A stretch of 64,000 bases of DNA from positions 10,611 through 74,610 of the forward strand of contig CAYSRJ010000014.1 in NCBI GenBank assembly GCA_964433545.1, written 5' to 3'. The notes under the pieces were generated by a model that did not search any database, had not been told where the DNA came from, and saw only the letters and a program-made list of their open reading frames with translations. The DNA is from an uncultured Spirochaetota bacterium (GTDB taxonomy: Bacteria; Spirochaetota; B62-G9; DRHN01). Within the stretch, counting starts at the first letter, position 1. Each line of letters starts with the position of its first letter. Positions 23,127-41,856 of this stretch are shown in pieces. The position numbers and the translations under genes were made by a program.

Positions 23127-24329
23127 ATGAAAAATACAATCGAACTGCTGAAAAATGCCCTTGACAGGGGGAACGGTATTTTACGCCTTTTTCCTAACTG
23201 GGTTCCCAGGGAGTTCTGCATTCCCGGAAGGCGGCTGAAGCTGCATCCGGATGATTATTTCTCGTTCGGCGCGCACAGGGGTGGAATCAGCGAGCGGTGG
23301 TTTGCATCAACCACAAAGGCTGATAACGGGCCTGAAACTCTTGAGGATGAGGGCTTGAGTTACATTTACATTGAGGACGGTTCCAAATCTGAAAAAGTAC
23401 TTTTCAAAGATGCGGTAGAGCTGATTGGGGAGGAAATTCTCGGAAAAGCGGTGATGGAAAAGCACGGCGGCTGGACGATGTATTCGAAATTCTTCGACAA
23501 TATGCAGCCTCTTCCCCATCATCTCCACCAGGATGATGAGAGTGCGGCGAAGGTGGGGCGAAAGGGAAAACCCGAGGGCTACTATTTTCCAAAGCAGCTC
23601 AACAACCATCCGGCCTGGTTCCCCTATACATTTTTCGGTCTCAACCCCGGTACCACGAAAGATCAGGTGCGAAAATGCCTGGAGAACTGGGAAAGGGGAG
23701 ACAACGGAATCCTGTACCTCTCGTGTGCGTATAAGCTGAAGCCGGGTACAGGCTGGGATGTTCCGTCCGGTATTCTTCACGCGCCCGGATCGTTTTTGAC
23801 CTATGAACCGCAGAGAGCTTCCGATGTGTTTGCCATGTTTCAGTCCCTTGTGTGGGAGCAGTATACTCCGTGGGACCTCCTGGTAAAGGATGTGCCGGAG
23901 GAGTACAGGCATGATCTTGACTACATTATAAATATGATAGACTGGGACCTGAATCTCGACCCGGATTTTTACAAAAACCGGTTTTTAGAGCCGAAACCCA
24001 TCAGGCCCGTAGAAGAGATGCGGGAAGAGGGCCATGCGGAATACCACATTGTGTATAACTCTGAGTATTTCAGTGCCAGGGAACTGACGGTTCTGCCTGG
24101 ACGTTCGGTCACAATAAAGGATGATGCCGCGTACGGATTAATTGTCATTCAGGGGCACGGAAAGTTCGGTGTGCTTGATGTGGAAGCACCTGCACTGATC
24201 AGATTCGGCCAGATGACGGGTGATGAGCTTTTCGTCAGCGTGAATGCCGCCCGGGAAGGCATCGCTGTTACAAATGAAAGCAGTACCGACGACCTCGTCA
24301 TGCTCAAGCATTTCGGACCGGGAGTGTAA
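23127..24329 (+). CDS. cupin-fold protein, class I mannose-6-phosphate-isomerase-like (function unknown)
   Basis: 400 aa. His-rich PHHLHQDD segment and SGILHAPGS resemble the Q/H metal-ligand and TPHAYLQG regions of type I PMI. Similarity is weak. Confidence 0.35.
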   Translation: MKNTIELLKNALDRGNGILRLFPNWVPREFCIPGRRLKLHPDDYFSFGAHRGGISERWFASTTKADNGPETLEDEGLSYIYIEDGSKSEKVLFKDAVELIGEEILGKAVMEKHGGWTMYSKFFDNMQPLPHHLHQDDESAAKVGRKGKPEGYYFPKQLNNHPAWFPYTFFGLNPGTTKDQVRKCLENWERGDNGILYLSCAYKLKPGTGWDVPSGILHAPGSFLTYEPQRASDVFAMFQSLVWEQYTPWDLLVKDVPEEYRHDLDYIINMIDWDLNLDPDFYKNRFLEPKPIRPVEEMREEGHAEYHIVYNSEYFSARELTVLPGRSVTIKDDAAYGLIVIQGHGKFGVLDVEAPALIRFGQMTGDELFVSVNAAREGIAVTNESSTDDLVMLKHFGPGV

Positions 24330-24793
24330 TAAGAGACTGAAACTGTTACTGGTAGTATAGGATTTAACGGTATATTTTACACATTATGAAAACAGGGTAT
24401 TTTTTATCATTTTTGATCCTTACCCTGACTGCAGTTCCGTGCGGTTATGTGGAAGAGATAGATTTTATATAACCGCCGGGTTCAACGGGTACGGCCCTCT
24501 TTTGAATAATTTCGATGTAGTGTCGGACCTGTATATAGAGGAGAGAAGCTCAGGTGCCGGGGTCAGTGCGGTATCAGATAAGCAACGACGGAACAACCTG
24601 GCACTGGTGGAACGGGAGCACATGGACCAATGCTGCCTCTTCTGCAGAGGCAAATACGGCGTCTGAAGTCAATGCCCGGATTTCACGGTTCGCGACCGAT
24701 GTTGGAACCGGCTCCTTTTGCCTCAGGGCGTTTCTTGTTTCCGACCGGACACAGCAGGTGCGGCTCGATGCAGTTGCCATTGACTACCGATGA

Positions 24794-25246
24794 TTACACC
24801 CACTTGTTGAAGTTTTTAATGGTAACGAGGCTTTCGGTCGATGCAACCGTTCCGATTGTTGATAATTCATTGGTGAGAAAGTTTATAAGGTTATGCGGCT
24901 CGATGAAGAGTTCGACTATCAGGTCGAATCTTCCTGTGATCATCGAGACAGACCGTACATTGGGGAGATCTGATACTCTCTGCGCGGTTTCTTTCCACTT
25001 TTTATTCATCTGCAGCGTGACCAGGATATAGATGAGCTGTTTTTCCGTACCCTCGTCCGGATTGATGAGTCCTTTCACTTTCAGGAGGTTGTTCACGGTG
25101 AGTTTCTTTATGCGGTTTCGGACCGTGCCTTCCGAAATGGAAAGTCTGGCCGCTATCTCGTTGTTGGGTATACGCCCGTTTTGGGAGAGTATATCAACAA
25201 TTTCGAGGTCTATGGCATCTATTTTGATCATTCCATACTGTATCAT
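24794..25246 (-). CDS. Lrp/AsnC family transcriptional regulator
   Basis: HTH IDLEIVDILSQNGRIPNNEIAARLSISEGTVRNRIKKL plus a C-terminal RAM domain. Confidence 0.8.
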   Translation of the reverse strand: MIQYGMIKIDAIDLEIVDILSQNGRIPNNEIAARLSISEGTVRNRIKKLTVNNLLKVKGLINPDEGTEKQLIYILVTLQMNKKWKETAQRVSDLPNVRSVSMITGRFDLIVELFIEPHNLINFLTNELSTIGTVASTESLVTIKNFNKWV

Positions 25247-25474: not shown

Positions 25475-25609
25475 CTTACGAACAGAGAGCTCGAAGTCGC
25501 CTCACTGATTACCGAGGGAAATACGAGTAAGGAGATTGTGGATATCCTCTGCATAACACAAAAGGCGGTTGAGTTTTACAGGATGAACCTGAGAAAAAAA
25601 CTCAATCTC
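25475..25609 (+). pseudogene. orphan LuxR/FixJ-type C-terminal HTH fragment, in frame with and immediately upstream of the OYE-like gene
   Basis: Translation LTNRELEVASLITEGNTSKEIVDILCITQKAVEFYRMNLRKKLNL matches the LuxR-type HTH. No receiver or N-terminal domain, and no ATG between the upstream stop at 25451 and the HTH. Confidence 0.4.
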
Positions 25610-25711
25610 GGCCGCCGCGAAATGAATCTCAGGATGTGTCTGCTGTGTATACCTGTTCAATCAGAACGGGGTGAATTCCAACAGGATGTTTTACAACAGG
25701 AGGTTTTATTT

Positions 25712-26953
25712 ATGGAAGAAAACGATATTCTCTTTACACCGATCAAAATCGGAAGCAGGCAGGTGGAAAATCGTTTTGCAATCAACGCCATGGAATGCTG
25801 CGACTCGGACGAGGAGGGAAACCCAACGGACAAGACGTATCGGCGGTACGAGCGTCATTTCAGAGGGGAATCCGGGGTTATCGTGCTCGAAGCAATCACC
25901 GTTACCTACGAAAGCAGGGGACGACTCATGGAGCTCAGTGTTATGCCCCGGAACCGGAAAGCGCTGACTAAATTCGTGTCGGAAATGAAAAAGGTGAACG
26001 ACAAACCTCTCTTCTTCTGGCAACTTACCCACTCAGGCGAGTTGAGTCACCCGGATTTTTCCCGTCGGGTGTGTGTTAAACCGCTTCCCGGGTTCGGGGG
26101 AGACCTGCTCACCGAGGAAGATATCGGGAAGATCATGGACCAGTTCGTGCTTTCTGCCAAAATCGCCCACGACTGCGGCGCGGACGGCATAGATTTCAAA
26201 CTCTGCCACGGGTACCTGGGTTCACAGCTCCTCAGGCCCTACAATGACAGAAAATGGAAGTACGGCGGTTCATGGGAAAACCGAACGCGATTTGCCTATG
26301 AAACATACGAGAGAATCATAAGAGAGGTGAACGATCCGGATTTCATCGTCGGATCCAAGGTTTCGATATGGGAGGGTTTTCCGGGCGGCCAGGGCAGCGC
26401 CGGTCCGGATACGGCGATAATCGACCTTACAGAATCTTTAAATCTCGTGAAGGGTATCGAGGAGCGGGGCGCCCGATTCATCCTCGTTTCTGCAGGCTCC
26501 CCGTCGATTACCCTTGCACTTTCACAGCCTGATAAAAGCATACCGGACGATGTGTATCTTCACCATACCTTCCAGAAGGCGGTCAGCGATGTGGTCAAAC
26601 CTGAGACCGTCGTTATCGGCTCCGCCTACTCGGTGCTGCGGAACGGAAAGAACAAGCTCCTTGCGGTAAAGGAAGAGGAGGCGTCTGCACTGTACTGGGC
26701 GCGAAAGAACATCAAGGACGGGGTATGCGATATGATAGCCTTCGGACGCCAGTCGCTTGCGGACAGCCTTATTCCACTGAAGCTGAAAGAGGGGCGGGAA
26801 GATGAGATCAAGTGGTGCACGGCATGCGATAACTGCATAGAATTTTTGATCCGGCAGAAGAATGTCGGGTGCGCAACCTACGACAGGGAGTATACCGAGT
26901 CTTTGAAGAGAATCAGGGAAGAAGAGGGCTCCTTGAGGGCCAAGCATACCTGA
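25712..26953 (+). CDS. Old Yellow Enzyme-family FMN oxidoreductase with C-terminal 4Fe-4S cysteine motif (2,4-dienoyl-CoA reductase N-domain-like)
   Basis: HG(A)HGY-like CHGYLGSQLLRP, and C-x2-C-x2-C-x11-C (CTACDNCIEFLIRQKNVGC). ATG at 25712 preceded by AGGAGG. The ORF track extends it upstream through the LuxR fragment. Confidence 0.6.
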   Translation: MEENDILFTPIKIGSRQVENRFAINAMECCDSDEEGNPTDKTYRRYERHFRGESGVIVLEAITVTYESRGRLMELSVMPRNRKALTKFVSEMKKVNDKPLFFWQLTHSGELSHPDFSRRVCVKPLPGFGGDLLTEEDIGKIMDQFVLSAKIAHDCGADGIDFKLCHGYLGSQLLRPYNDRKWKYGGSWENRTRFAYETYERIIREVNDPDFIVGSKVSIWEGFPGGQGSAGPDTAIIDLTESLNLVKGIEERGARFILVSAGSPSITLALSQPDKSIPDDVYLHHTFQKAVSDVVKPETVVIGSAYSVLRNGKNKLLAVKEEEASALYWARKNIKDGVCDMIAFGRQSLADSLIPLKLKEGREDEIKWCTACDNCIEFLIRQKNVGCATYDREYTESLKRIREEEGSLRAKHT

Positions 26954-27127
26954 GCCGAATCGATCTCGAACAATGTAGTTCGGTACGACGGAATATATTC
27001 CGTCAGCCTCCGTCGGCAGATGCGCTGTTGTTCGGTATGGTATCCGGAAGCAAGCGTCCGGATAACGTGCCGGAGTCAGATGCGGTTTATTATACAGGCG
27101 ACAGATCCTGGAAAAACGCTAAACAGT

Positions 27128-27649
27128 TTATACATCGATATCCACATCGATTTCAAGGCCGATACGGTCGAGGTCTTTTTTCATCCTTTCGAGGGAGACA
27201 TCCCCGGGAACCTGTATCTCGATATCCAGGGAGTAACGTACCGTTCCGCTCTCAGGCGAGGTGATGCGCCGGGATGTCAGGTTGGCGATATTCACCTTCA
27301 TCGATGAAAGGTAATCGCTTATCCGATACACGATACCGGTATGGTCGACCCCTTCGACATGTACACGCCGGGGGATAAACGGCTCCACTATCCACCCGCC
27401 TGATCTGTTTGCCGGACGGAAAAAGGCAGAAATTCCCCGCTGTTTCTCGAGCCGCCTGCATGCTTTTGCAAGGTCATCCTCGATATCCTCACGAATCGAG
27501 AAGAGGAGGATGATTGCGAATTCATCGGCAAGCCGGGTCATGGTGGAATCTTCGAGATTTCCCCCGATTTCGAATATAAGCCCGGCAACATCCGCAACGA
27601 CGCCAGGACGGTCTTTTCCGAATGCAGTTAGTACGTAATGCTTTTCCAT
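27128..27649 (-). CDS. gcvR: glycine cleavage system transcriptional regulator GcvR-like (tandem ACT domains)
   Basis: HYVLTAFGKDRPGVVADV aligns to E. coli GcvR HYLVITALGADRPGIV. Two ACT-like halves. Second ATG chosen because it follows GGGAGTGA. Confidence 0.6.
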   Translation of the reverse strand: MEKHYVLTAFGKDRPGVVADVAGLIFEIGGNLEDSTMTRLADEFAIILLFSIREDIEDDLAKACRRLEKQRGISAFFRPANRSGGWIVEPFIPRRVHVEGVDHTGIVYRISDYLSSMKVNIANLTSRRITSPESGTVRYSLDIEIQVPGDVSLERMKKDLDRIGLEIDVDIDV

Positions 27650-27924
27650 GTGTTTCACTCCCATTTCATATCACCGATTGATTACGTGTACAAAGACCTT
27701 TAATCCATGATAAATCAGGTGATTCCCTGTTTTTGCATCATTAATTATTGCATAAAAAACACAGCTTATCCAGTTCTTCTTCGTCTATGTGAACTTGATC
27801 ACGCCTGTAACGGCACTGTTATTAAACAAAGGTCTCGCTATTGATTATTTTCGTATTAATATAGCTCATATTACATATTATATGTAATTTTTTATAAATA
27901 AATTGTGTTATCTGTATTTATCAC

Positions 27925-27953
27925 TTGACAGAAAAGGTGGTACGGAGTATACT
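27925..27953 (+). promoter_or_regulatory. sigma70-like promoter TTGACA-17-TATACT for the SHMT-GcvT gene
   Basis: Perfect -35 and near-consensus -10 about 18 nt upstream of RBS GAAGGAG and the ATG at 27971. The leader is too short for a riboswitch. Confidence 0.4.
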
Positions 27954-27970
27954 GGCTGAAGGAGTGTACC

Positions 27971-30900
27971 ATGCATTATGCTGGTTATGTATTCGGCAAG
28001 ACGCTTGAGGATATCGATCCGACTATAGCAGGAATCGTAGAATTCGAGGAGGCGCGGCAGGCAAGAAAAATTATTCTCATTCCCTCCGAGAGCATATGCC
28101 CGGCGCCTGTGCTCAGAGCGCTTGGCTCTTCCTTTAATAACGTATATGCGGAAGGATATCCCTCTCGTTTCATGGAGGGTGAAGATGAGCCGACTCTGGC
28201 TGACATTGATTTCCAGCTCACCCGGTATAGGCGGTACGCGGACAGGCGGTTCTACAAGGGGTGTGAGTATGCAGATCTCGTCGAGAAGATCGCGGCGCGC
28301 AGGGCGGCACAGCTGTTTCGGACCAGGAAGAATTCACCTGAAAATATTTTTATCAATGTTCAGCCGCTCTCGGGTTCGATTGCAGTGAGCGCCGTATACG
28401 ATGCCTTTGTACAGCCCGGTGAAACCGTGATGGGTATGTCACTGATGCACGGTGGGCATCTCACCCACGGAAGCGAGTTCAACAGGTCTGGAAAACAGCA
28501 CCGAATCGTCTCCTACGAGGTTGATCCCGTATCGGGGAGGCTCGACTACTCCCGTATCATCGATCTTGCCGCTACACATAGGCCGCGGATGATTATTGCA
28601 GGCTATACCTCGTACCCCTGGGCCCCGGACTGGAAAAAATTCAGGAAGGCTGCTGATAGTGCCGGGGCAATACTGCTGGCCGATATTTCTCACCCGGCGG
28701 GGATGGTTACAGCCGGTGTATACCCAAATCCGGTCGATTATGCGGATGTTGTTGTATTCACCACGCATAAAACACTGTTCGGTCCCCGTGGCGCGGTCAT
28801 CATGACCACAAACAGGGAGTACGCTGAACGTATTGATCAGGCGGTGTTCCCCGGTGAGCAGGGGGGGCCCCACGTGAACAAGTTTGCAGCAATGGCGGTG
28901 GCATTCGGAATCGCAGGAAGTAGTGCATTTAAAAAAGTACAGAAGGATATTGTTGAAAACGCGCATTTTCTCGGACAGGTGCTCGAGCGAAACGGGCTGA
29001 AACTCGCCTACGGCGGAACAGATACCCATCTTCTTCTTCTCGACCTCAATTCGGTTGAAACGAAGAGCGGTTTTCCGCTCAAAGGTGAGATAGCTGTTCG
29101 AATCCTGGACCTTTGCGGGATCGTCGCCAACAAGAACACCATACCGGGCGACACAGCAACAGCCGAAGCGAGTGGCGTGCGTATCGGCACACCGTGGATC
29201 ACGCAAAGAGGAATAACGAGGACTGGGCTCGAGGAGTTAGGCGTTCTCATAGCAAAGACAATTAAAAACATACAGCCTTTCACCTACAGAGGGATCACCG
29301 GCGACCTGCCGAGAGGCAAGATTGACCTCGATCTGCTTGTCGATATACAAAGTCGCGTGGCGTCTCTTGCCGGGAGCCTCGAAAAACAGAAAGATGCAGC
29401 GGTAATGGGTTACCCCCAGTATGGCTTGCAGTCTGCAAAAGAAACTGCAGACAGCGCACATCACTTTTGCTCAATCCTGATTAAAGGGGAACGTTCTCCT
29501 CTGTTTCTTGAAGGGGTTTCCACACGTGCGATCAGCACATCTATACAGGGTAATGCAGTCGAAACCTTTTTACTCGGGGGTGACGGTACGCTTATTTCGC
29601 AGGCTGTTGTGGTAAGACTTTCTCCCGATAAAAGGGGGAAAGATCGATTTCTCCTCGTGTGCCCGGGTGAAACCTGTCAAAAGGTCCTGACCTGGCTCAG
29701 GGGCCTGTCCGACGGATACATCGCTTTTGATCCTCGTGATATTTTCAGAAAGATTGATGGCCCTGTTGTGATCAGGGAGCATGATGAGTGCAGTGAAGAC
29801 GAGAAACATGAGATCGAAGGTATGCTTGAAACGATTTCGCCACATCTGAAAATAGAGCAGAAAATAAAGGGGAAAAATTCCTCATCTTTCAAACCGGGGG
29901 CAGAGTCCCAGGAACTATATAGACAGCGGCCGGATTGCTTTGATGTTTCAAAGCCCTATTTTATCGGCATGCATGCTCTGGGTCGTGCGGCGAAAAATAC
30001 CGGTAAGAAAATTTTCCGCCCGGCAGAAGTGCTTCATAATAAACCAGGTGCAGGGAAACAAGGTGCAAAGCCGAGCTGTCTCTACGCGGAACACCTGAAG
30101 CTCAGGGCGCATATGGTTGCCTTTGCAGGATGGGAAATGCCGGTACGGTACGAGCGGATAATCGATGAGCACAGGGCTGTGCGACAGAACGCCGGGCTGT
30201 TCGATATCAGTCATATGGGTATTCTTGAGGTAAGTGGCAGGTTTTCAACACAGTTTCTTGATACGGTATACAGCAACTATGTCCCCTGGATAAAAACAGG
30301 GGAATCGATGTACGGGTACCTGCTTGACCCGGATGGCCACACGATCGATGATATCATGATTTACAAACTAGGCCATGAGAGATACATTGTGGTCGTAAAT
30401 GCGGCAAACAGTGACGTCGATATCAGGTGGCTCAATGCGGTAAATGAAAAAGCAGTTTGTATTGATGCCGATGTGCCGGTTCGGGAAATAATCGGTGATG
30501 TAGTTATTCGGAACCTCAAGGATATTCAGGCTGTCGGATCTGATGCGCGTGTCGGCATGGCCCTTCAGGGACCGGCCTCTTTGAAAGCCCTGTGCGCTCT
30601 CACCGACGCGGTCGGGACACAAATTTCACGCCTTGAGAAATCGACTTTTATTCAGTGTGAGATCGGCGGTTGCGATGTTCTGGTATCGAGGACAGGCTAT
30701 ACGGGGGAGGAGATAGGGTATGAGATCATGGTTCATCCAGACAGTGCGTCTCTTCTTTGGAACAGCCTACTCGATGTGGGTAGACCGTACGGAGTAAAGC
30801 CTGCGGGTCTTGGGGCGCGCGATTCTCTCAGAATCGAAGCAGGCCTCCCCCTGCATGGCCATGAGCTTGCAGGACCCTGGGATATAACTCCCCTGGAGGC

Positions 30901-31273
30901 AGGATTCGGCCCCTATGTAAAGTTTCACAAGGCTTTTTTCATCGGGAGAGACGCCTTTTTGCAGCGTATGAAGAAATCTACGATGGAGGTCGTACGTTTC
31001 AAGGTACGGACACGCGGTGTGCGCATGGCGAAAACGGGTGACTGCGTGGTTGAAATCAGAAGCCAGCGTATTATCGGCAGGGTGACGAGCTGCGCACAGG
31101 GAACCGATGAGCTGCAGGTCGGTATGGCGTATATCGACACCCGGTTTTCACGGGAGGGGACTCTGATAGGTATTATCAGTGCCTTTTCGGAAAATGAGAA
31201 AACTGTTTCCGGAAAAATCGGAGAAAAGTATCATCTACATATCGATGCCGGGATAATCAGCAGGTTTCCTTAG
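27971..31273 (+). CDS. fused serine hydroxymethyltransferase (N-terminal, about aa 1-460) - unknown middle region (about 200 aa) - aminomethyltransferase GcvT (C-terminal, about aa 690-1100)
   Basis: N-terminal SHMT segments (NVYAEGYP, LMHGGHLTHGS, TTHKTLFGPRG, VFPGEQGGPH). C-terminal GcvT segments (MPVRYERIIDEHRAVRQNAGLFDISHM, SRTGYTGEEIGYEI, GLGARDSLRIEAGLPL). A single continuous 1100-codon frame. Confidence 0.7.
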   Translation: MHYAGYVFGKTLEDIDPTIAGIVEFEEARQARKIILIPSESICPAPVLRALGSSFNNVYAEGYPSRFMEGEDEPTLADIDFQLTRYRRYADRRFYKGCEYADLVEKIAARRAAQLFRTRKNSPENIFINVQPLSGSIAVSAVYDAFVQPGETVMGMSLMHGGHLTHGSEFNRSGKQHRIVSYEVDPVSGRLDYSRIIDLAATHRPRMIIAGYTSYPWAPDWKKFRKAADSAGAILLADISHPAGMVTAGVYPNPVDYADVVVFTTHKTLFGPRGAVIMTTNREYAERIDQAVFPGEQGGPHVNKFAAMAVAFGIAGSSAFKKVQKDIVENAHFLGQVLERNGLKLAYGGTDTHLLLLDLNSVETKSGFPLKGEIAVRILDLCGIVANKNTIPGDTATAEASGVRIGTPWITQRGITRTGLEELGVLIAKTIKNIQPFTYRGITGDLPRGKIDLDLLVDIQSRVASLAGSLEKQKDAAVMGYPQYGLQSAKETADSAHHFCSILIKGERSPLFLEGVSTRAISTSIQGNAVETFLLGGDGTLISQAVVVRLSPDKRGKDRFLLVCPGETCQKVLTWLRGLSDGYIAFDPRDIFRKIDGPVVIREHDECSEDEKHEIEGMLETISPHLKIEQKIKGKNSSSFKPGAESQELYRQRPDCFDVSKPYFIGMHALGRAAKNTGKKIFRPAEVLHNKPGAGKQGAKPSCLYAEHLKLRAHMVAFAGWEMPVRYERIIDEHRAVRQNAGLFDISHMGILEVSGRFSTQFLDTVYSNYVPWIKTGESMYGYLLDPDGHTIDDIMIYKLGHERYIVVVNAANSDVDIRWLNAVNEKAVCIDADVPVREIIGDVVIRNLKDIQAVGSDARVGMALQGPASLKALCALTDAVGTQISRLEKSTFIQCEIGGCDVLVSRTGYTGEEIGYEIMVHPDSASLLWNSLLDVGRPYGVKPAGLGARDSLRIEAGLPLHGHELAGPWDITPLEAGFGPYVKFHKAFFIGRDAFLQRMKKSTMEVVRFKVRTRGVRMAKTGDCVVEIRSQRIIGRVTSCAQGTDELQVGMAYIDTRFSREGTLIGIISAFSENEKTVSGKIGEKYHLHIDAGIISRFP

Positions 31274-31314: not shown

Positions 31315-32541
31315 ATGGCAACAATTAAAGCATTCAGGGCGCTTGCCCCTGCACCAGAAAAGGCGCGGGCGGTTTCGAGTGTTCCGTACGATGTAGTAAC
31401 TGTTGAAGAGGCGAAAAATATGGCTGAGGGGAATCCGCTCAGCTTCCTTCATGTCATTCGTCCTGAAATAGATCTACCTGAGGGTATGAATCCATACGAC
31501 CCTGCGGTGTACCAGAAGGCCGCTCAAAATTTCCATACCCTGCGGCAAAAAAATCTTCTAATTCAGGACGACAGTCCTGTCCTGTATATCTACCGGCTGC
31601 AGGTAAACAGCCATGAGCAGACTGGTGTTGCGGGTTGCTGCCGGGTCGATGAATATGACCGTGACATTATTAAAAAACATGAACATACCAGGAAGGAAAA
31701 GGAGGATGACCGGGTCCGGCATATGCTCGCTCTCTCTGCCCATGCAGGACCTGTACTTATGACCTATCGGGGGATCCGGCATCTTGATGCATTGATCGAT
31801 CGCGAGAGAAAAAATGCTCCTCTCCATGATTTTACTGCCGTCGACGGTGTCCGGCATACGGTCTGGCGGGCTGAAAATTCTGAAGAGATAGAGGCTGTTT
31901 TTAAAGAGGTGCCTTATTTGTATATTGCAGATGGTCATCACCGGGCTGCAGGTGCGAGCCGAGTCCGGGAGGAAATGAGGAAAAAAAATATTGGTCGCGG
32001 TGACGACTCTTCAGCAGAGTACAATTTTTTTCTTGCCGTGCTCTTTCCATCTGAACAGCTCAGGATACTTTCGTACAACAGGCATGTCAGCGATCTCAAC
32101 GGACGAAGTGAAAAAGATTTTATGAAAGAAGTAAAAGCCCGATTCGATGTAGCTGAAACGACGAATCCTGCTCCAGCGCAAAAGGGTGTTTTTTGCATGT
32201 ATCTTGAAGGAACCTGGTTCAGCCTTACCGCTGCCGGAGATGTGAGCTCGAATGATCCTGTAAGTGCGCTCGATCTGAGCATATTTCAGAGACTGCTTTT
32301 AGAGCCGATACTCGGGATTATGGATCAGAAGAAGGACCGGCGCATCGATTTTGCCGGCGGTTCGGACAGCACCGAAAAACTCAAGGGGCTTGTCGATAAA
32401 AAGGGCGGGGTTGCATTTTCATTTTATCCTGTGGGCGCCGAGGAGCTTCTTGCGGTTGCCGATGCCGGCATGGTAATGCCGCCAAAATCGACCTGGTTTT
32501 CACCGAAGCTTCGGTCCGGGCTGCTCGTTCATCTATTCTGA
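31315..32541 (+). CDS. DUF1015 domain-containing protein (function unknown)
   Basis: 408 aa. Architecture and motifs (YIADGHHR) match the DUF1015 family, which commonly neighbours serA/serC. Confidence 0.55.
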   Translation: MATIKAFRALAPAPEKARAVSSVPYDVVTVEEAKNMAEGNPLSFLHVIRPEIDLPEGMNPYDPAVYQKAAQNFHTLRQKNLLIQDDSPVLYIYRLQVNSHEQTGVAGCCRVDEYDRDIIKKHEHTRKEKEDDRVRHMLALSAHAGPVLMTYRGIRHLDALIDRERKNAPLHDFTAVDGVRHTVWRAENSEEIEAVFKEVPYLYIADGHHRAAGASRVREEMRKKNIGRGDDSSAEYNFFLAVLFPSEQLRILSYNRHVSDLNGRSEKDFMKEVKARFDVAETTNPAPAQKGVFCMYLEGTWFSLTAAGDVSSNDPVSALDLSIFQRLLLEPILGIMDQKKDRRIDFAGGSDSTEKLKGLVDKKGGVAFSFYPVGAEELLAVADAGMVMPPKSTWFSPKLRSGLLVHLF

Positions 32542-32640: not shown

Positions 32641-33858
32641 ATGTCCATGAAGGTTTTAATTGCAGACAAGTTCCCAGATGAAAAGATCGATGAGTTGAGA
32701 AGTCTCGGATGCGAGACCATGTATGACCAGTCTCTCAAGGATGATTCGCTGCTTTCTGCTCTTCATACGCAGCAACCGGATGTGCTCATTGTACGTTCTA
32801 CTAAAGTGGACGCTGATATGATTAAAGCAGACAGGGGGCTGAACCTCATTATCAGGGCCGGCTCAGGGGTAAATACCATCGATGTAGAAACCGCATCGGC
32901 TAGGAGCATATACGTTGCCAACTGTCCCGGAAAAAATGCTGTGGCTGTTGCTGAGCTTGCGTTCGGGTTGATTCTTGCTCTGGACAGGAAGATTCCGGAC
33001 AATGTAATCCAGTTGAGGGACGGGAGGTGGAACAAGAAGGAATTTTCAAAGGCGAGCGGGATCAGCGGACGGACGCTTGGTGTGGTCGGTGTAGGCAGGA
33101 TCGGTAAAGAGGTCATTTCAAGGGCGCGGGCGTTCGGTATGCATGTGATTGCATGGAGCAGGTCCCTCGACCAACAGAAGGCCCGGCTTCTCGGCATCGA
33201 TTATCGAAAGAGTCCTGAGGCCCTGGCTCGCGATGCGGATATCGTGACGATTCACCTTGCACTTACCTCGGAAACCACTGGTCGTATTGGAAATACCTTC
33301 TTTCAGGCGATGAAACCAGGCGCCTGTTTCATCAATACATCGAGGGCTGAAGTCGTCGATGAACGGGCATTGTTGCTGGCCATAGCTGAAAAAGGAATAC
33401 GGGCCGGACTTGACGTTTTTGCAGAAGAACCCGCGGCGAAGGAAGGCGAGATTAAAAGTTCACTCACCGAATCTCCGAATGTGTACGGTACACATCATAT
33501 CGGTGCATCCACCGAGCAGGCGCAGAATGCTGTTGCAGACGAAACCATACATATCCTGCGGGAGTTTCTCCGAACTGGAAAGGTTGCCAATTGTGTGAAT
33601 CTCATGGAACGAACCCCCGCTCGCTGGATGCTTTCTGTTCATCACAAGAATCGTGTCGGGGTGCTTGCAGGAGTTCTTGATATTATTCGGGATGCTGGCA
33701 TAAATATCGAAACAATGGAGAATATTATTTTCAAGGGAGCAGACGGCGCCTGCGCGCGTATTCAGCTTGATGGTAAGATTTTAGACCGGAACATCAAGAA
33801 AATTGAAAACAGCAATGAAGATATACTATACGTATCGCAAGTAGAACTGGGAAGGTGA
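32641..33858 (+). CDS. serA: D-3-phosphoglycerate dehydrogenase (2-hydroxyacid dehydrogenase with C-terminal ACT domain)
   Basis: NAD-binding GVVGVGRIGKEV, catalytic R/E/H region and a C-terminal ACT-like segment. RBS AGGAGGTG. Confidence 0.8.
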   Translation: MSMKVLIADKFPDEKIDELRSLGCETMYDQSLKDDSLLSALHTQQPDVLIVRSTKVDADMIKADRGLNLIIRAGSGVNTIDVETASARSIYVANCPGKNAVAVAELAFGLILALDRKIPDNVIQLRDGRWNKKEFSKASGISGRTLGVVGVGRIGKEVISRARAFGMHVIAWSRSLDQQKARLLGIDYRKSPEALARDADIVTIHLALTSETTGRIGNTFFQAMKPGACFINTSRAEVVDERALLLAIAEKGIRAGLDVFAEEPAAKEGEIKSSLTESPNVYGTHHIGASTEQAQNAVADETIHILREFLRTGKVANCVNLMERTPARWMLSVHHKNRVGVLAGVLDIIRDAGINIETMENIIFKGADGACARIQLDGKILDRNIKKIENSNEDILYVSQVELGR

Positions 33859-33892: not shown

Positions 33893-34288
33893 ATGAAGTT
33901 TCCGGAAAATTTACGTTATACCGATGAGCATGAATGGATTTTACAGGATGGAAGTTTGGTGACGGTGGGTATTACGGATTATGCTCAGGGCCGGCTGGGT
34001 GATGTTGTATTCGTCGAAATGCCTGCAATCGGAACAAGGCTCAAACGGGGAGAAGCTGTCGGCGTCGTAGAATCCGTGAAAGCGGCATCGGATGTGTATG
34101 CACCTGTGGGTGGGGAGGTGGTCGAAACGAACGAGACTCTAATCGAGCATCCCGAATACGTCAATCTTTCTCCCTATAACGACGGCTGGATGGTGAGAAT
34201 TAAAATGAACGAACCATCCGAGATATCTCAACTGATGGACGGCGGCGCATACGGTGAGCTCGTAAAAAAAGAGTCTAAGGAAGGCTGA
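33893..34288 (+). CDS. gcvH: glycine cleavage system H protein
   Basis: 131 aa. Lipoyl-lysine motif ESVKAASDV. Confidence 0.9.
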   Translation: MKFPENLRYTDEHEWILQDGSLVTVGITDYAQGRLGDVVFVEMPAIGTRLKRGEAVGVVESVKAASDVYAPVGGEVVETNETLIEHPEYVNLSPYNDGWMVRIKMNEPSEISQLMDGGAYGELVKKESKEG

Positions 34289-34418
34289 AGCACATACTCG
34301 GCGTCGATCTACCTGGATTTAACAATTTTTGAGATATTACGGTTTGGTTGAATCGCCAGGTCGATGCTGAATGGGAATCGGCGGCATAGTACCGGTGTGT
34401 GATGAGAGGAGCGAATCG

Positions 34419-35765
34419 ATGAGTTATATTCCGAATACCGATGAAGATATTCACGATATGCTCCGGCTTATAGGATGCAGGGATGTTTCAGACCTGTTTT
34501 CACACATACCCGAAGATTTACAATTTAGTGAAGAACTTGATCTCCCGAAACCGCTTTCCGAACCCGACCTTGTTCGGCACATGCGGGGCCTGAGCATGAA
34601 GAACGCCCACCTGCGTGAATACTCCTCTTTTCTCGGCGGCGGTCTGTACAACCACTATATTCCTTCGGCTGTAAGCCAGCTTGCAGCACGTTCGGAGTTT
34701 TATACTTCCTATACTCCATATCAACCGGAGGTAAGCCAGGGAACACTGCAGGCCATATTCGAGTACCAGTCGCTTATGTGCTCACTTTCCGGTATGGATG
34801 TTTCTAATGCTTCGGTGTATGACGGGGCAACGAGTGTTGCCGAGGCGGTGCTCATGGGACTCAGGATAAACAGGCGAAATACAGTTATCCTGTCCAGATC
34901 CTTGAACCCGCAGTACCGCGCGGTGATAGAGACGTACATGAAAGGGCATGCGAAGATACTCGAAACTCCATGGGACAAACATGGGGTAACGGATATCAAA
35001 AAACTCTCGGCAATGCTCGATGAATCCGTATCAAGCGTTGTGCTTCAGTCACCTAACTTCTTTGGGATTCTCGAAGACCTACAGAAGTTTGAAAAAGAGG
35101 TACACGCGCAGGGCGCGCTTTTTATCGCCGTGTTTTCAGAGCCGCTTGCCTTCGGAATAATCAACCCACCCGGTGTGTACAATGCGGATATCGCCTGCGG
35201 TGAGGGACAGAGCCTTGGAATTCCTCCCGGGTACGGCGGACCGCTGCTCGGTATACTCACCTGCAAGAGGGATTTCATTCGCAGCATGCCGGGGCGTATT
35301 GCAGGCATGTCCGTCGACCGGAAAGGAAACAGGGCGTTCGTGCTCACTCTGACGGCGCGCGAACAGCATATACGGCGTGAAAAGGCGACGTCGAATATCT
35401 GCACCAATCAGGGGTTATGTGCGCTGACGGCTGCACTGTATCTGAGCGCATTGGGAAAGAAGGGATTTCAACGCGTCGGTCTGCTTAATTATGAGCGTGC
35501 CGAATACGCTAAGAAGGTTTTTGCCGGGGTCAGCGGATTCAGATTGAAGTTCAACGCGCCTACATTCAACGAATTTGTTCTCGAAACCGACCTGAATGTT
35601 GAAAAACTCATGCAGCACGCAATCGAGAAGAAGTTTATTCCCGGGCTGTCTCTTTCACCTTATTATAAGGAGCTTACAAACTGTCTGCTGGTAAACGTTA
35701 CTGAGATGAACACAAAAAAAGAGATCGATTCACTTGGCACCGTCTTGAGTGAATGCGGAAAGTAA
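34419..35765 (+). CDS. gcvPA: glycine dehydrogenase (decarboxylating) subunit 1
   Basis: Split-type P-protein N-terminal subunit. ATG preceded by GAGAGGAG. Confidence 0.85.
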   Translation: MSYIPNTDEDIHDMLRLIGCRDVSDLFSHIPEDLQFSEELDLPKPLSEPDLVRHMRGLSMKNAHLREYSSFLGGGLYNHYIPSAVSQLAARSEFYTSYTPYQPEVSQGTLQAIFEYQSLMCSLSGMDVSNASVYDGATSVAEAVLMGLRINRRNTVILSRSLNPQYRAVIETYMKGHAKILETPWDKHGVTDIKKLSAMLDESVSSVVLQSPNFFGILEDLQKFEKEVHAQGALFIAVFSEPLAFGIINPPGVYNADIACGEGQSLGIPPGYGGPLLGILTCKRDFIRSMPGRIAGMSVDRKGNRAFVLTLTAREQHIRREKATSNICTNQGLCALTAALYLSALGKKGFQRVGLLNYERAEYAKKVFAGVSGFRLKFNAPTFNEFVLETDLNVEKLMQHAIEKKFIPGLSLSPYYKELTNCLLVNVTEMNTKKEIDSLGTVLSECGK

Positions 35766-35783: not shown

Positions 35784-37268
35784 GTGGACATTTCATTGGA
35801 TAAAGAAACGGCTTTTGCAGAAGAGCCGCTTGTTTTTGAAAAGGGATCGCCGGGAAGAACCGCTGTCGAGCTCCCCGAGACCTGGAATAATGAAACCCTG
35901 CTGAAGAAATCGCTGCCTCCATCGATGATCCGAAATTCCTTCGAAGGGTTTCCAGAGATAAGCCAGGTCGAACTTGTCAGGCATTTCACGAGGCTTTCAC
36001 AGTGGAACTACGGGCTCGACACCGGGTTCTATCCCCTTGGTTCGTGTACCATGAAGTATAATCCGAAGGTCCATGAAGACATCGTGAAGCTCGAGGGTTT
36101 CAGCTTCATCCACCCCCTGCAACCGGAGGAGCTTGCACAGGGTGCTTTGCAGATTATGTACGAGCTTGAAAGATACCTGGCTTCTATCACCGGAATGGAC
36201 AGGGTTACGCTGCAGCCTGCGGCCGGAGCGCACGGGGAACTGACCGGCATGACTATGATACGGGCCTATTTTACGGACCGGGGAGAGAAACGGACAAAGG
36301 TGCTTATCCCTGATACAGCACACGGCACAAACCCCGCGAGTGTGAGTATGTGCGGGTTTACACCGGTGCCGATCAAATCGGGGAAAGGAGGGTGGCTGGA
36401 AGCTGCTGCGGTCGATGCGGTAATGGACGAAAACACCGCGGCGATCATGATCACCAACCCGAATACACTCGGAATATTCGAGGAGGAGATGGGCAGGATT
36501 GCAGAAATAGTACACAGTAAGGGCGGGCTTTTGTATATAGACGGTGCAAATCTCAACGCACTTATGGGAATTGTCCGCTTCGGGGATATCGGGTGTGATG
36601 TGCTTCACATGAATCTGCACAAGACCTTTTCAACTCCGCATGGCGGCGGGGGTCCCGGAGCCGGACCTGTTGCAGTCAAAGATACACTCGCCTCGTTTCT
36701 CCCTGTGCCCGTTATCGAGAAGAAAGACGATGTATTCAGCCTCGATTACGATCTTAAAAAATCGATCGGCAGGGTAAAAAGCTTTTACGGCAATTTTCTC
36801 GTCTGCGTCAGGGCGTATGCGTATATACGAACCCTGGGCTGGGCGGGACTGAAGAGGGTATCTCAGACAGCGGTGGTAAACGCGAACTACCTGCGTAAGA
36901 GGCTCGAGAGATATTTTTTCCTTCCATATAAAACACCGTGTATGCATGAGTGCGTCTTTACCGACAGGGAGCAGCAAAAACACGGTGTCAGCACACTTGA
37001 TATTGCGAAACGGCTCATCGATTACGAATTTCACCCGCCGACTATTTACTTTCCCCTCGTTGTGCATGGTGCGCTCATGGTCGAACCGACGGAAACCGAA
37101 AGCAGGGTAACGCTTGATCGTTTCATAGATGCAATGATAGCTATTGCTGATGAAGCGGAGAAATCCCCCGATATACTGCACAATGCACCGCAGAGGGTGA
37201 AAATAACGAGAGTCGATGAGGTACAGGCAGCGAGAAAGCCGATACTTCGATGGAAGGATATGAAATAG
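35784..37268 (+). CDS. gcvPB: glycine dehydrogenase (decarboxylating) subunit 2
   Basis: PLP-lysine region HMNLHKTFSTPHGGGGPGAGP. GTG start after GGAGAA. Confidence 0.85.
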   Translation: MDISLDKETAFAEEPLVFEKGSPGRTAVELPETWNNETLLKKSLPPSMIRNSFEGFPEISQVELVRHFTRLSQWNYGLDTGFYPLGSCTMKYNPKVHEDIVKLEGFSFIHPLQPEELAQGALQIMYELERYLASITGMDRVTLQPAAGAHGELTGMTMIRAYFTDRGEKRTKVLIPDTAHGTNPASVSMCGFTPVPIKSGKGGWLEAAAVDAVMDENTAAIMITNPNTLGIFEEEMGRIAEIVHSKGGLLYIDGANLNALMGIVRFGDIGCDVLHMNLHKTFSTPHGGGGPGAGPVAVKDTLASFLPVPVIEKKDDVFSLDYDLKKSIGRVKSFYGNFLVCVRAYAYIRTLGWAGLKRVSQTAVVNANYLRKRLERYFFLPYKTPCMHECVFTDREQQKHGVSTLDIAKRLIDYEFHPPTIYFPLVVHGALMVEPTETESRVTLDRFIDAMIAIADEAEKSPDILHNAPQRVKITRVDEVQAARKPILRWKDMK

Positions 37269-37445
37269 GAACCTTAGAAGTGGTGTGAATCCCCCCGGGG
37301 AATGACATTTGCGGGACGTGCCATTTCGAGGTCGATCCTTGACAGGGCTCGGTATCACAACTATCTTAATAAAAGTTACTTAGAAATGGAACCATTTCGC
37401 GGCCGAGTATTACAACTATCTTAATCCAAGGTACTTAGAAACAGC
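37269..37445. repeat. degenerate composite copies of the REP/MITE-like family in the convergent gcvPB/HDAC intergenic region
   Basis: CTTAGAAG at 37273. CCCCCCGGGG box at 37291. AAGTTACTTAGAA at 37373. TTTCGCGGCCGAGTAT at 37395. Direct 16-mer duplication CACAACTATCTTAAT at 37356 and 37412. Confidence 0.5.
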
Positions 37446-38505
37446 TCCAGAACTCCCTTTGAACACCCGAAACCTGATTGATTATCAGGTCGACATCCTG
37501 CCTGCGTCTGACACTGGGTTGTTCCGGAGAAACGTCATCTCTCTCACCGTTGAGGCGCAGCAAAACTTTTTTTACACTTTCTCTCAATGCCTCGAGGTTG
37601 TACCCTCCTTCGAGGGAGAGCAGTAGTTTCCCGTTCGCCGTGCTTTCTGCTGTATCCATTACTACACCGGCGAGAGAGGCGAATCCATCGGTTGTAACCT
37701 CCATTCCACCCAATGGGTCTTCGTAGTGGGCATCAAATCCTGCGGATACGAGCACGAGTTGCGGCCTGTACAGCAGCGAAATGGGTTTGAGCACTTTTTC
37801 AAACAGGGTTACGTATGCGTAGTCTCCGTATCTTGGTCCGAGAGGAATATTGACGGTGAACCCTCTGCCCCTTCCGCTTCCGGCTTCCATGACATCACCG
37901 GTTCCCGGATAGTAAGGGTATTGATGAATTGAAAAATAGAGCACCCTGTCATCCGAGTAGAAGGAATGCTGTGTACCATTACCATGATGAAGGTCCCAAT
38001 CGACGATAAGCACCCGTTCGAGCGCGTGATTCCTGATTGCATGTTCTGCGCCGACTGCGATGTTGTTGAAGATGCAGAAGCCCATGCCTCTGTTTGCCTC
38101 CGCATGATGGCCGGGTGGGCGAATAAGCGCAAAGACATTGTCACACTCTTCATTCATCAGTGCGTCGATACCACGCAGAACACCTCCTGCAGCGTAGAGG
38201 GCTGCTTCGAAAGACTTTGCAGAAAGCTGGGTATCCATATCGAGGGACGAATAAGGGATGCCTTCTGTCATAGCCACCTGTTCATAATATGCAGGCTTGT
38301 GGTTATACTCAATCTCCTCCTTTGTAGCCTTCCTGGGGGGAAGGTATTCGAGCTTTCCCGATATGTCTTTATCTTCAAGCATATCATAGAGAACCTCGAG
38401 CCGGCGGGGACTTTCCGGATGCGGCGGTCCAGTTTTGTGCTCGATAAAAATAGCGTCTTTCACGACTCCTGTCATAGGCACCCTCCTGACCATGAAGACA
38501 CACAT
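37435..38505 (-). CDS. histone deacetylase-family protein (acetoin utilization AcuC / acetylpolyamine amidohydrolase-like)
   Basis: HDAC motifs RPPGHHA, DWDLHHGNGTQ and GFD. The true start may be the internal Met (MTGVVKD, 38475). Confidence 0.75.
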   Translation of the reverse strand: MCVFMVRRVPMTGVVKDAIFIEHKTGPPHPESPRRLEVLYDMLEDKDISGKLEYLPPRKATKEEIEYNHKPAYYEQVAMTEGIPYSSLDMDTQLSAKSFEAALYAAGGVLRGIDALMNEECDNVFALIRPPGHHAEANRGMGFCIFNNIAVGAEHAIRNHALERVLIVDWDLHHGNGTQHSFYSDDRVLYFSIHQYPYYPGTGDVMEAGSGRGRGFTVNIPLGPRYGDYAYVTLFEKVLKPISLLYRPQLVLVSAGFDAHYEDPLGGMEVTTDGFASLAGVVMDTAESTANGKLLLSLEGGYNLEALRESVKKVLLRLNGERDDVSPEQPSVRRRQDVDLIINQVSGVQREFWSCF

Positions 38506-39170: not shown

Positions 39171-39296
39171 CTTTTGCCTCCTGTATAATGAATTATTTCC
39201 TGTTTTTCACAGTGTGGGCCGGAATTTAGATTCCCTCGGGCGCTGGCAGTGTAACGCTCAGTTCAATGTATGAATACAGAGTCAGCGGCACTGTTG

Positions 39297-39345
39297 AGTA
39301 ACTTCTCGCGAAGTTACTTTATGATATTCGGTCCCCGGGTACGTA
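39297..39345. repeat. REP/MITE-like element copy in reverse orientation (AGTAACTTC-tcgc-GAAGTTACT then TTATGATATTCGGTCCCCGGGTAC)
   Basis: The reverse complement matches the second module of the 53682-53727 copy, including the CCCCGGGGAC box. Confidence 0.6.
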
Positions 39346-39512
39346 AACCACTTTTAAGTAAATTGTTACACCAAAAAGCTGAAATTGCAATTGTATTATA
39401 TGCGGGAAAAAAAGAGGAAAATGATGTAATGTATGTAGGGTTTACAGTGGGGTTCTTTCTCTTGCGGTCTCACACGGGATTTATTATAATAGGCAGAAAA
39501 TGGAGGAATAAA

Positions 39513-40553
39513 ATGACCAAAAAGCTTATATCCATTGTTTTTTTCATCCTGACACTGGTTGCGGTTCCAGTTCTATCCTATTCCGCTGTCGTCGACTGGG
39601 TTTCAGGTGATGTTGCATACAGTCATCTGAAAAGCGCCTGGGAACAGCTTGATTCGGGGATGACACTGGTCTCAGGTGACATTGTCAAAACAGGCGAAGG
39701 CGGTGAGGCTACCCTCATTGACGAAGGGAGTGAAATGCATATAATGGCAAACTCTCAATTCACTATCTCGGAAAAATACGTGCAGGAGCAGAAAAAACCT
39801 TCTTTCATGCTTTTTATCGGGAGAATGAAGTTCAAGCTGGGCAAAAAAGCAAAGACTGAGCCGGATATTCAGACTCAAACGGTAAATCTCACCATCAGGG
39901 GCACCGAGTTTGAGGTGGGATCCGGATATGACGGGTCGACTATTGTCCTTTTGAATGAAGGAAGCGTTGCAGTGCAGGGGCAGAAGAATGAATTGGTTCT
40001 GCAGACGGGTGAAGGGACAGAGGTTGCGTTCGGGGAGGAACCGACGGAAAAGTTTAGAGTCATGACCAGAGTCATCGACTGGGACGCCTGGCTCGCAGAT
40101 TCACAGGAGGCCGTTAAAGGAAACGAAGTCTCACTTTTGGACAAAGTACTCGGCAGGTTTCAAGGGATAGAAGAAGACATCAATAAAAATGAGGTGCTGC
40201 GAGCTAGTGCGCAGAAAAAAAAGGATGAGTTTATTGCCGAGCGGGACAGGCTCATCGATGAGGGGAAAAAGGAGGAGGCGGATACATACTCCAAAAAAGC
40301 AGGGGAGCAAAGCAAGCTCGCTTTTCATTCTTTTGTGAATATACGGTTTTTAGCCCTTTCCACGATTGGTCTCTTTGACATGGCTGAAAGGATATATACG
40401 GGGATTGAAAAGCCGCCTAAAGAAGCTAGTGACCTGTTTGAACAGATTCAAAAAATATATAAAGATATAGAAGCAAAATATCTGTATGAAGGAGACAGGG
40501 AACGGCTCGAAAAAAAGGCTGAAAAGAAAAAGGGGTGTAGCAAACTGTTTTAA
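39513..40553 (+). CDS. secreted FecR-domain protein with C-terminal coiled-coil/charged region
   Basis: Signal peptide, then a FecR-like domain (VSGDVAY...LVSGDIVKTGEGGEATLIDEGSEMHIMANSQF...RGTEFEVGS...EGSVAVQG). Confidence 0.6.
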   Translation: MTKKLISIVFFILTLVAVPVLSYSAVVDWVSGDVAYSHLKSAWEQLDSGMTLVSGDIVKTGEGGEATLIDEGSEMHIMANSQFTISEKYVQEQKKPSFMLFIGRMKFKLGKKAKTEPDIQTQTVNLTIRGTEFEVGSGYDGSTIVLLNEGSVAVQGQKNELVLQTGEGTEVAFGEEPTEKFRVMTRVIDWDAWLADSQEAVKGNEVSLLDKVLGRFQGIEEDINKNEVLRASAQKKKDEFIAERDRLIDEGKKEEADTYSKKAGEQSKLAFHSFVNIRFLALSTIGLFDMAERIYTGIEKPPKEASDLFEQIQKIYKDIEAKYLYEGDRERLEKKAEKKKGCSKLF

Positions 40554-40557
40554 GACC

Positions 40558-41846: not shown

Positions 41847-41856
41847 GAATACAAAG

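Follow-up and report, generated by a model that had tools for sequence, protein, structure and literature searches.

Reading Frame and Architecture

Is an open reading frame (ORF) that joins serine hydroxymethyltransferase (SHMT, GlyA) to the T-protein of the glycine cleavage system (GcvT) a real protein, and what could such a chain do? The question is raised by a single ORF in a 64,000-nucleotide (nt) stretch of DNA, hereafter the window, from an uncultured Spirochaetota bacterium (assembly GCA_964433545.1, contig CAYSRJ010000014.1, positions 10,611 to 74,610). We found that its product is a genuine three-module chain, in which an SHMT of the active type is followed by a truncated, dead copy of GcvT, called here GcvT', and then by a complete T-protein. 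An earlier note made from the sequence had described an in-frame fusion of SHMT and GcvT, and this description holds, as both halves pass the Pfam and NCBIfam profiles and have their catalytic residues intact. The same note could not assign a middle part of about 200 amino acids (aa); this part, which we find to be about 265 aa long, is a truncated and degenerate duplicate of the GcvT folate-binding domain. The ORF and its parts are as follows (pLDDT, per-residue confidence of the AlphaFold2 (AF2) model; dN/dS, ratio of non-synonymous to synonymous substitution rates).

27971-31273, plus strand: fusion ORF, SHMT, GcvT' remnant and GcvT, 1100 aa from an ATG start, no internal stop
27971-29272, plus strand: SHMT catalytic module, aa 1-434, supported by Pfam SHMT, alignment to Geobacillus SHMT, Foldseek and invariant residues
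28169-28243, plus strand: insertion of ~25 aa in SHMT, aa 67-91, a gap in the alignment to the SHMTs of the Protein Data Bank (PDB), including that of Geobacillus
29273-29377, plus strand: C-terminal extension of the SHMT clade, aa 435-469, a beta-hairpin with invariant PFxYxGxxGxLxRGK, then a helix
29378-29458, plus strand: variable linker, aa 470-496, low confidence, with pLDDT <50 at 492-495
29459-29785, plus strand: GcvT' remnant, aa 497-605, recognised by Pfam GCV_T, BLASTP of the protein against itself, hhalign and Foldseek
29786-30070, plus strand: tail of the middle region and linker, aa 606-700, fast-evolving, dN/dS 0.35-0.78
29939-29968, plus strand: FDxSKPYFIG motif, aa 657-666, remnant of the end of the GCV_T domain, K661 invariant
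30071-31270, plus strand: T-protein module with a probable C-terminal barrel, aa 701-1100, supported by TIGR00528, alignment to 1YX2, Foldseek and invariant residues

The family to which this protein belongs is large. An exhaustive search of 50%-identity representatives yielded about 70 clusters of at least 1000 aa; full-length homologues form at least 120 clusters (1063-1278 aa, 46-79% identity), and a scan of one genome per species recovered the family-specific middle region in 231 genomes. Our locus comparisons cover the best 80 of these 231 genomes, in stretches of 20 kb each; statements on invariance refer to an alignment of 78 diverse family sequences, and dN/dS values to the window versus its two closest relatives (loci L001 and L002). 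All of the best 80 loci come from metagenome-assembled genomes, 14 of them Spirochaetota, 7 Aerophobetes and 3 unclassified, while the rest belong to Chloroflexota, mainly Anaerolineae. The search for orthologues suggested in the earlier note thus returned the same architecture, with SHMT, middle region and GcvT collinear in 78 of the 80 loci, the other two being cut by contig ends.

It could be argued that separate glyA and gcvT genes were joined by faulty assembly, by a frameshift in sequencing or by loss of a stop codon. We found nothing that speaks for this beyond the prior expectation that the two genes are usually separate. A protein identical to that of the window (P0001) occurs on seven contigs of different sources, 78 of 80 loci, assembled independently and drawn from three phyla, repeat the architecture, and the middle region is folded and under selection, unlike translated intergenic DNA. 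As the full-length architecture is kept in many independent assemblies and purifying selection acts on all modules, such an artefact is excluded for practical purposes. The AF2 model of the full-length protein is compact (pLDDT 85.9, predicted TM-score (pTM) 0.86), and no solved structure found with it by Foldseek spans more than one module (TM-score normalised to the query at most 0.36). NCBIfam contains no model dedicated to an SHMT-GcvT fusion.

The Two Catalytic Modules

The N-terminal half scores 384.6 bits with Pfam SHMT (PF00464; E 5e-115, cutoff 27) and 408 bits with the NCBIfam SHMT model (PRK00011/NF000586, cutoff 335). It shares 38-41% identity with solved SHMTs, aligns to the Geobacillus enzyme with 330 bits, and its model reaches Foldseek TM-scores of 0.91-0.94 normalised to the SHMT structures, which gives it the fold of a fold-type I pyridoxal phosphate (PLP) enzyme. 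The invariant residues of this half are Y59, E61, Y95, D238, H241, T264-T-H-K267, N387-K-N-T-I-P392 and R404. By alignment to solved SHMTs, K267 (motif TTHKT) corresponds to the lysine that forms the Schiff base with PLP and D238 to the PLP-N1 aspartate, E61, Y59 and Y95 are the catalytic glutamate and tyrosines, R404 is the arginine for the substrate carboxylate, and NKNTIP is the folate loop. Hence, the module has the same fold, PLP lysine, Glu/Tyr residues, carboxylate arginine and NKNTIP loop as bacterial GlyA (PF00464; Geobacillus stearothermophilus 1KKJ, E. coli 1DFO), and differs from it by a 25-aa helical insertion, a C-terminal hairpin-helix extension and the link to two GcvT-type domains.

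An insertion in the SHMT domain had been pointed out before, and alignment to the Geobacillus SHMT confirms about 25 residues. They are located between GYPSR and RRFYKGCEY, i.e., between the catalytic E61 and Y95, and are helical according to the AF2 prediction. The insertion is kept family-wide, with R87, R88 and Y89 invariant, and a similar one is carried by the shorter SHMT-only relatives P0236 and P0259, which may be stand-alone proteins or fragments. In the C-terminal extension, P436, F437, Y439, G441, L446, R448, G449 and K450 are invariant, and AF2 predicts strands at 435-440 and 445-451 and a helix at 453-469; this hairpin-helix element is likewise found in shorter SHMT-only relatives (stand-alone or fragments). 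We considered whether the SHMT half is an equivalog of the long SHMTs described by NF010094 (PRK13580). The alignment to this model extends through residue 465, yet the score of 286.5 bits lies far below the cutoff of 735, so the half is related to that group and not a member of it. The SHMT-only relatives P0222, P0236 and P0249 fall below the same cutoff.

As for the C-terminal half, it matches Pfam GCV_T with E 3e-83 and, over residues 701-1066, the gcvT equivalog TIGR00528 with 270.3 bits (cutoff 235.85). It aligns with the T-proteins of B. subtilis, T. maritima and E. coli (217 bits to B. subtilis 1YX2), and its Foldseek TM-score normalised to 1YX2 is 0.89. The match to GCV_T_C (PF08669) is weak (19.6 bits, below the 25.9 cutoff); the AF2 model shows beta strands in this part. 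Invariant in this half are D793, D794, N810, A811, N813, G909, T911, G912, E913, R950, R954 and E956. Among them, D794 is the catalytic aspartate of the IDD motif, in the position of T. maritima D96, and the NAAN, GYTGE and LGARD..EAG motifs are invariant as well. The module therefore shares IDD, NAAN, GYTGE, LGARD...EAG, probably the barrel, and often the gcvH-gcvPA-gcvPB context with GcvT proteins (B. subtilis 1YX2, T. maritima 1WOO, E. coli 3A8I). In contrast to them, its N-terminus is tethered, it carries an insertion of about 14 aa after WL that is absent from the T. maritima protein, and it is preceded by a degenerate paralogous copy.

Scanned with profiles, as the earlier note had proposed, SHMT and GCV_T both lie above their cutoffs, which bears on the idea that one half has become a pseudo-enzyme, with SHMT a mere dimerisation scaffold for GcvT, or GcvT a mere folate binder for SHMT. 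One GcvT copy has already become a dead domain in this family, and a few operons retain a separate glyA or gcvT beside the fusion, both of which would be in line with this idea. Against it, the checked catalytic and cofactor residues are invariant in both halves throughout the 78 sequences, both halves exceed curated family cutoffs, and dN/dS stays within 0.09-0.25 (0.09-0.10 for SHMT, 0.12-0.25 for GcvT). We regard the loss of either activity as very improbable.

The Middle Module Is a GcvT Remnant

When residues 432-707 were scanned alone, Pfam GCV_T (PF01571) matched with 34.1 bits (cutoff 25.6), covering profile positions 47-123 of 255. BLASTP of the middle region against the C-terminal GcvT of the same protein gave 25% identity (E 6e-8), and hhalign of the short-form middle regions against the C-terminal GcvT a probability of 99.2% (E 3e-19). 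The structure prediction of this region that the earlier note had called for gave a model which retrieves solely GcvT-fold structures with Foldseek, namely T-protein, Iba57/YgfZ, dimethylglycine dehydrogenase, sarcosine oxidase and the MnmE/TrmE N-domain. Its core superposes on the E. coli T-protein with a root-mean-square deviation (rmsd) of 2.1 A over 109 columns, has a pLDDT of about 86-94 in the full-length model and evolves with dN/dS of 0.16-0.20. A novel domain is thereby ruled out, as four methods (Pfam, BLASTP, hhalign and Foldseek) point to GcvT homology. A Pfam DUF384 match in the same region (E 0.23) was dismissed as noise.

The history of this module can be read from the two size classes of the family. 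Proteins of the long class (1214-1278 aa) retain the full GCV_T folate-binding domain in their middle region (profile positions 2-239 of 255, E 1e-40 to 1e-47), with no C-terminal barrel attached to it; these copies keep the DD pair, but their NAAN, GYTGE and LGARD motifs are degenerate. The window protein belongs to the short class, whose middle copy is missing about 45 residues at its N-terminus as well as the entire QGP..GYTGE..LGARD subdomain of ~90 residues. The linker at aa 470-496 stands in place of the N-terminal segment of the long-form copy, the blocks before position 497 being specific to the long form. What is left has S-Q where the catalytic D-D would stand, and contains the invariant motif WLRGLSDGYxxFDxxDIFxKxxGP, with D581, Y583 and K594 invariant, and, at its end, FDxSKPYFIG, which aligns with the KxxFIG(R/K) that closes the folate-binding domain in T. 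maritima GcvT and in the C-terminal copy. Together with PFxYxGxxGxLxRGK, these are the family-specific motifs still conserved in the middle region.

In the middle and the C-terminal copies alike, the WL motif is followed by an insertion of ~14 residues; since T. maritima GcvT does not have it, the duplication arose within this lineage. By these sequence comparisons, GcvT' is an internal duplicate of the downstream GcvT that has since degenerated. As the catalytic aspartate and the GYTGE and LGARD motifs are lost, the middle module of the window protein is homologous to a T-protein and not functional as one. Similar to GcvT', YgfZ/Iba57 and the N-domain of MnmE/TrmE, which are among its Foldseek matches, have a GcvT fold without the catalytic residues of T-protein, and short-form GcvT' is, like the TrmE N-domain, a piece of about 110 residues. 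It differs from both in that its sequence marks it as a recent paralogue of the adjacent GcvT, and it is a member of neither family.

Two smaller observations concern surface elements of these domains. The loop inserted after the WL motif (aa 826-845, nt ~30446-30505, and aa 582-600, nt ~29714-29770) is predicted to have a non-regular structure, with block-mean pLDDT of about 85-93 over the spans that contain it, and in the model it may be an element of contact between domains. In one short-form homologue, a sevenfold tandem repeat of STNKI is inserted into the GcvT' remnant after the first helix, which suggests that a surface loop of GcvT' tolerates large insertions.

Gene Context and Proposed Function

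In the window, the fusion is followed on the same strand by five genes at spacings of 18-99 nt.

31315-32541, plus strand: DUF1015 protein of the SerBK family, a proposed serine kinase or SerB substitute (Pfam PF06245, 327.9 bits, E 7e-98, cutoff 25.8)
32641-33858, plus strand: SerA-like D-2-hydroxyacid dehydrogenase with a C-terminal ACT domain, assigned by Pfam, with the phosphoglycerate dehydrogenase model TIGR01327 as best NCBIfam match
33893-34288, plus strand: gcvH (TIGR00527, 154 bits, cutoff 115.85)
34371-35765, plus strand: gcvPA (NF001696, 601 bits, cutoff 364)
35784-37268, plus strand: gcvPB (NF003346, 731 bits, cutoff 441)

A cluster of DUF1015, serA, gcvH, gcvPA and gcvPB had been listed in the earlier note. 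Its order stands, and profiles support DUF1015, gcvH, gcvPA and gcvPB; the serA label goes too far, as the protein scores 282.6 bits with TIGR01327, below the cutoff of 454, and SerA-like is the safe name. The order fusion-DUF1015-serA-gcvH-gcvPA-gcvPB is kept in Spirochaetota. Many loci of Anaerolineae and Aerophobetes have the fusion immediately before gcvH-gcvPA-gcvPB, i.e., in the canonical slot of gcvT. Downstream sequence of at least 2.5 kb is available for 53 loci, of which 28 have gcvH/gcvP; in 12, gcvH lies within 400 nt downstream of the fusion. DUF1015 and serA-like genes also recur beside the fusion in several Anaerolineae, including loci without gcvH. Among the ORFs scanned, the window encodes no second SHMT or GcvT.

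We propose, with a probability of roughly 60%, that the protein is a bifunctional T-protein/SHMT, which would couple glycine cleavage to serine formation and recycle tetrahydrofolate (THF) locally; the enzyme activities, the direction of flux, the recycling or channelling of folate and the role of GcvT' are what we infer from sequence, predicted structure and gene context. The fusion would serve as the T-protein of the glycine cleavage system formed by GcvH, GcvPA and GcvPB of the cluster, with the L-protein encoded elsewhere. The P-protein would load the aminomethyl group of glycine onto lipoyl-GcvH, the GcvT module would pass it to THF, freeing NH3 and methylene-THF (CH2-THF), and the SHMT module, which is probably dimeric like other bacterial SHMTs, would condense CH2-THF with a second glycine to serine. 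In this way, SHMT would regenerate THF beside the T site, so that a local THF/CH2-THF cycle would run in one particle with the net reaction 2 Gly + NAD+ -> Ser + CO2 + NH3 + NADH. For GcvT', we suggest a structural role as spacer or docking element, by which the two folate sites would be kept in a fixed geometry. The fusion would make most mechanistic sense if the folate product of one module feeds the other.

In the Spirochaetota operon, the DUF1015 kinase and the SerA-like enzyme, the latter working in reverse, could take serine further towards 3-phosphoglycerate with the help of an aminotransferase encoded outside the cluster. According to a recent proposal, DUF1015 is SerBK, a serine kinase with importance for serine utilisation that can stand in for SerB (bioRxiv 10.1101/2024.10.14.618325); this fits a flux from glycine through serine to 3-phosphoglycerate. 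If the pathway runs oppositely, DUF1015 and the SerA-like enzyme might instead supply serine.

Several observations weigh against the coupling of glycine cleavage to serine formation. Of the 53 loci with sufficient flanks, 25 have no gcvH or gcvP within 10 kb, and the window cluster contains neither serC nor lpdA. Two Chloroflexota operons hold a stand-alone enzyme beside the fusion, a 376-aa gcvT in L046 (8708-18507) and a 423-aa glyA between gcvH and gcvPA in L026 (8708-17403), so the fusion is not always a plain replacement; a third (L076, ~1682-13487) contains two fusion genes. In the E. coli T-protein, the free N-terminal region matters for binding of the H-protein; in the fusion, the corresponding end of the T module is tethered. 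Plant glycine decarboxylase and SHMT, in turn, have been reported to cooperate without physical channelling. Finally, co-regulation with a serA-like gene fits the opposite direction, from 3-phosphoglycerate through serine and glycine to one-carbon (C1) units, equally well, and in that direction both modules would make CH2-THF, leaving nothing to channel.

The opposite direction, which is the main rival reading, deserves to be spelled out. 3-Phosphoglycerate would be converted by the SerA-like enzyme, an aminotransferase and DUF1015 to serine, serine to glycine and CH2-THF, and glycine oxidised to a second CH2-THF; the fusion would then provide 1:1 stoichiometry and co-localisation, with no hand-over of folate. 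In favour of this supply of C1 units, both modules are intact, and in Spirochaetota the fusion and gcvH/gcvP share a transcript with the serA-like gene and with DUF1015, a possible stand-in for SerB in serine synthesis. Yet, the fused modules would exchange no intermediate, as glycine goes to the P-protein and not to T, which leaves less selective reason for a fusion or for a constrained spacer domain. DUF1015 is argued to be a kinase, which favours consumption of serine, and the SerA reaction is thermodynamically favoured in reverse. We regard this direction as somewhat unlikely.

A more far-reaching version of the glycine-to-serine proposal appears rather doubtful to us. The chain might be a self-contained machine that keeps its own (polyglutamyl-)THF, with CH2-THF not mixing with the bulk and GcvT' holding folate or docking the H-protein, and, together with DUF1015 and the SerA-like enzyme, it might form an undescribed route from glycine to 3-phosphoglycerate in uncultured anaerobes. 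GcvT' resembles in its extent the N-domain of MnmE, which binds formyl-THF at the dimer interface.

Improbable, in our view, is a role in the reductive glycine pathway, in which CH2-THF, CO2 and NH3 would be combined to glycine, and glycine with a second CH2-THF to serine, to be passed on to 3-phosphoglycerate via DUF1015 and the SerA-like enzyme. The cluster does cover all steps from the glycine cleavage system to serine and (phospho)serine but the aminotransferase, and the carriers belong to Spirochaetota, Anaerolineae and Aerophobetes, lineages known mainly as anaerobes. However, among the window ORFs scanned there is no formate dehydrogenase (fdh), fhs, folD or other gene of C1 activation, both modules would compete for CH2-THF instead of passing it on, and the sugar and peptide ABC transporters that make up most of the surrounding genes are typical of a heterotroph.

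Related Systems and Significance

GcvT-type domains fused to an enzyme are also known from dimethylglycine dehydrogenase and oxidase, the alpha subunit of sarcosine oxidase and trimethylamine N-oxide (TMAO) demethylase. In those enzymes, the GcvT-like domain captures on THF the C1 unit made by its fused partner, and they are thus precedents for hand-over of C1 units within a single chain. The present family differs from them in that the partner is itself a folate enzyme, SHMT, and not a flavoprotein or metalloenzyme releasing an iminium or formaldehyde, and in that the intermediate which could be shared is CH2-THF itself. The net chemistry proposed here is that of plant mitochondrial glycine decarboxylase and SHMT in photorespiration, where 2 Gly are converted to Ser, CO2, NH3 and NADH with THF cycling between T-protein and SHMT; there, the enzymes are separate proteins, and here they form one chain.

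We found no description of a natural SHMT-GcvT fusion in the full-text literature, the coverage of which was incomplete, so that an existing description is possible. The fusion joins two well-known enzymes of one pathway via a pseudo-enzyme remnant, which is a familiar kind of evolutionary event and not a new kind of system. Its interest lies in the place of the two partners in metabolism, as amino acids are linked to the folate C1 pool chiefly through two gateways, SHMT and the glycine cleavage system. Direct exchange of CH2-THF between these two has been debated for plant mitochondria and is relevant to engineering of the reductive glycine pathway. As a natural single chain of SHMT and T-protein, conserved across three phyla in at least 231 species, the fusion lends itself as a simple system for testing folate hand-over and as a part for synthetic C1 pathways, while GcvT' is a clear case of a domain that was duplicated, inactivated and partly deleted and is still under selection, probably as a structural element. 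There is a practical side as well. In public databases, hundreds of these proteins are on record as "GcvT" or "glycine hydroxymethyltransferase"; as such labels name one of two activities, metabolic reconstructions may mistakenly list glyA or gcvT as absent from the lineages concerned.

Upstream Region

The intergenic region before the fusion (27665-27970) and the gene on its other side hold the following features.

27925-27953, plus strand: sigma-70-like promoter TTGACA-17-TATACT, 11/12 consensus matches, 18 nt before the ATG
27870-27888, no strand assigned: palindrome ATTACATAT-T-ATATGTAAT, a candidate operator or activator site that precedes the promoter
27128-27664, minus strand: tandem-ACT protein, 177 aa, GcvR-sized, divergently transcribed (Pfam ACT_6 and ACT_4)

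The promoter is kept in both L001 and L002, and a Shine-Dalgarno sequence stands directly before the ATG of the fusion. No Rfam family matched the window at gathering score, and within 27000-28200 a threshold of E<=10 brought up nothing relevant; the glycine riboswitch (RF00504) was not found, and a promoter that close to the ATG (18 nt) leaves no room for a riboswitch in the leader. The core of the palindrome, TTACATAT-N-ATATGTAA, is present in the window and in L002, and in L001 the left arm differs by one base (TAACATAT). Further blocks of the intergenic region, around 27725-27760 and 27903-27925, are conserved in the two relatives, although coding dS (synonymous divergence) between the window and L002 is about 0.9-1.1. 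From this conservation, the palindrome and the blocks are probably operator or activator sites used in place of the usual glycine riboswitch. A scan for terminators and promoters inside the cluster gave nothing above shuffled expectation.

The divergent gene had been counted as gcvR in the earlier note, a label that the profiles do not support, as its product scores 55 bits with the GcvR model NF008612 (cutoff 267) and only the first ACT domain aligns. Among the 80 loci, this tandem-ACT gene is present only in the two closest ones. Next to it, at 25538-26953 (plus strand), lies a gene for a 471-aa flavin mononucleotide (FMN) oxidoreductase of the old yellow enzyme (OYE) type with weak similarity to bilirubin reductase and BaiCD-type enzymes, and the OYE-like gene adjoins the ACT gene in L001 too.

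Other Genes of the Window

The absence of lpdA from the window, remarked upon earlier, was confirmed: no Lpd-like protein was found among the scanned ORFs, which included every one of LpdA size (all of ~420-475 aa), those outside the scan being shorter than LpdA. We also considered one candidate for the missing SerC.

13023-14138, plus strand: class-V aminotransferase, similar to PhnW/AepZ and to aspartate-glyoxylate aminotransferases, all below cutoff, following an FGGY kinase and an ABC transporter

Its best matches are PhnW-like and below cutoff, and the serC models give only about 35 bits, so we rejected it as SerC. Upstream of the cluster, the ORFs at 23127-24329 (plus strand, 400 aa) and 24630-25031 (plus strand, 133 aa) have no Pfam match, and the former has no NCBIfam match either. 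On the other side, a gene of the histone-deacetylase family (37435-38505, minus strand) converges on the end of gcvPB, an arrangement kept in L002. It is followed at 39270-47990 (plus strand) by a run of genes with FecR, PQQ-like beta-propeller, PEGA/CarboxypepD_reg (899 aa), PD40 and TPR domains, which may encode a cell-envelope complex unrelated to the fusion.

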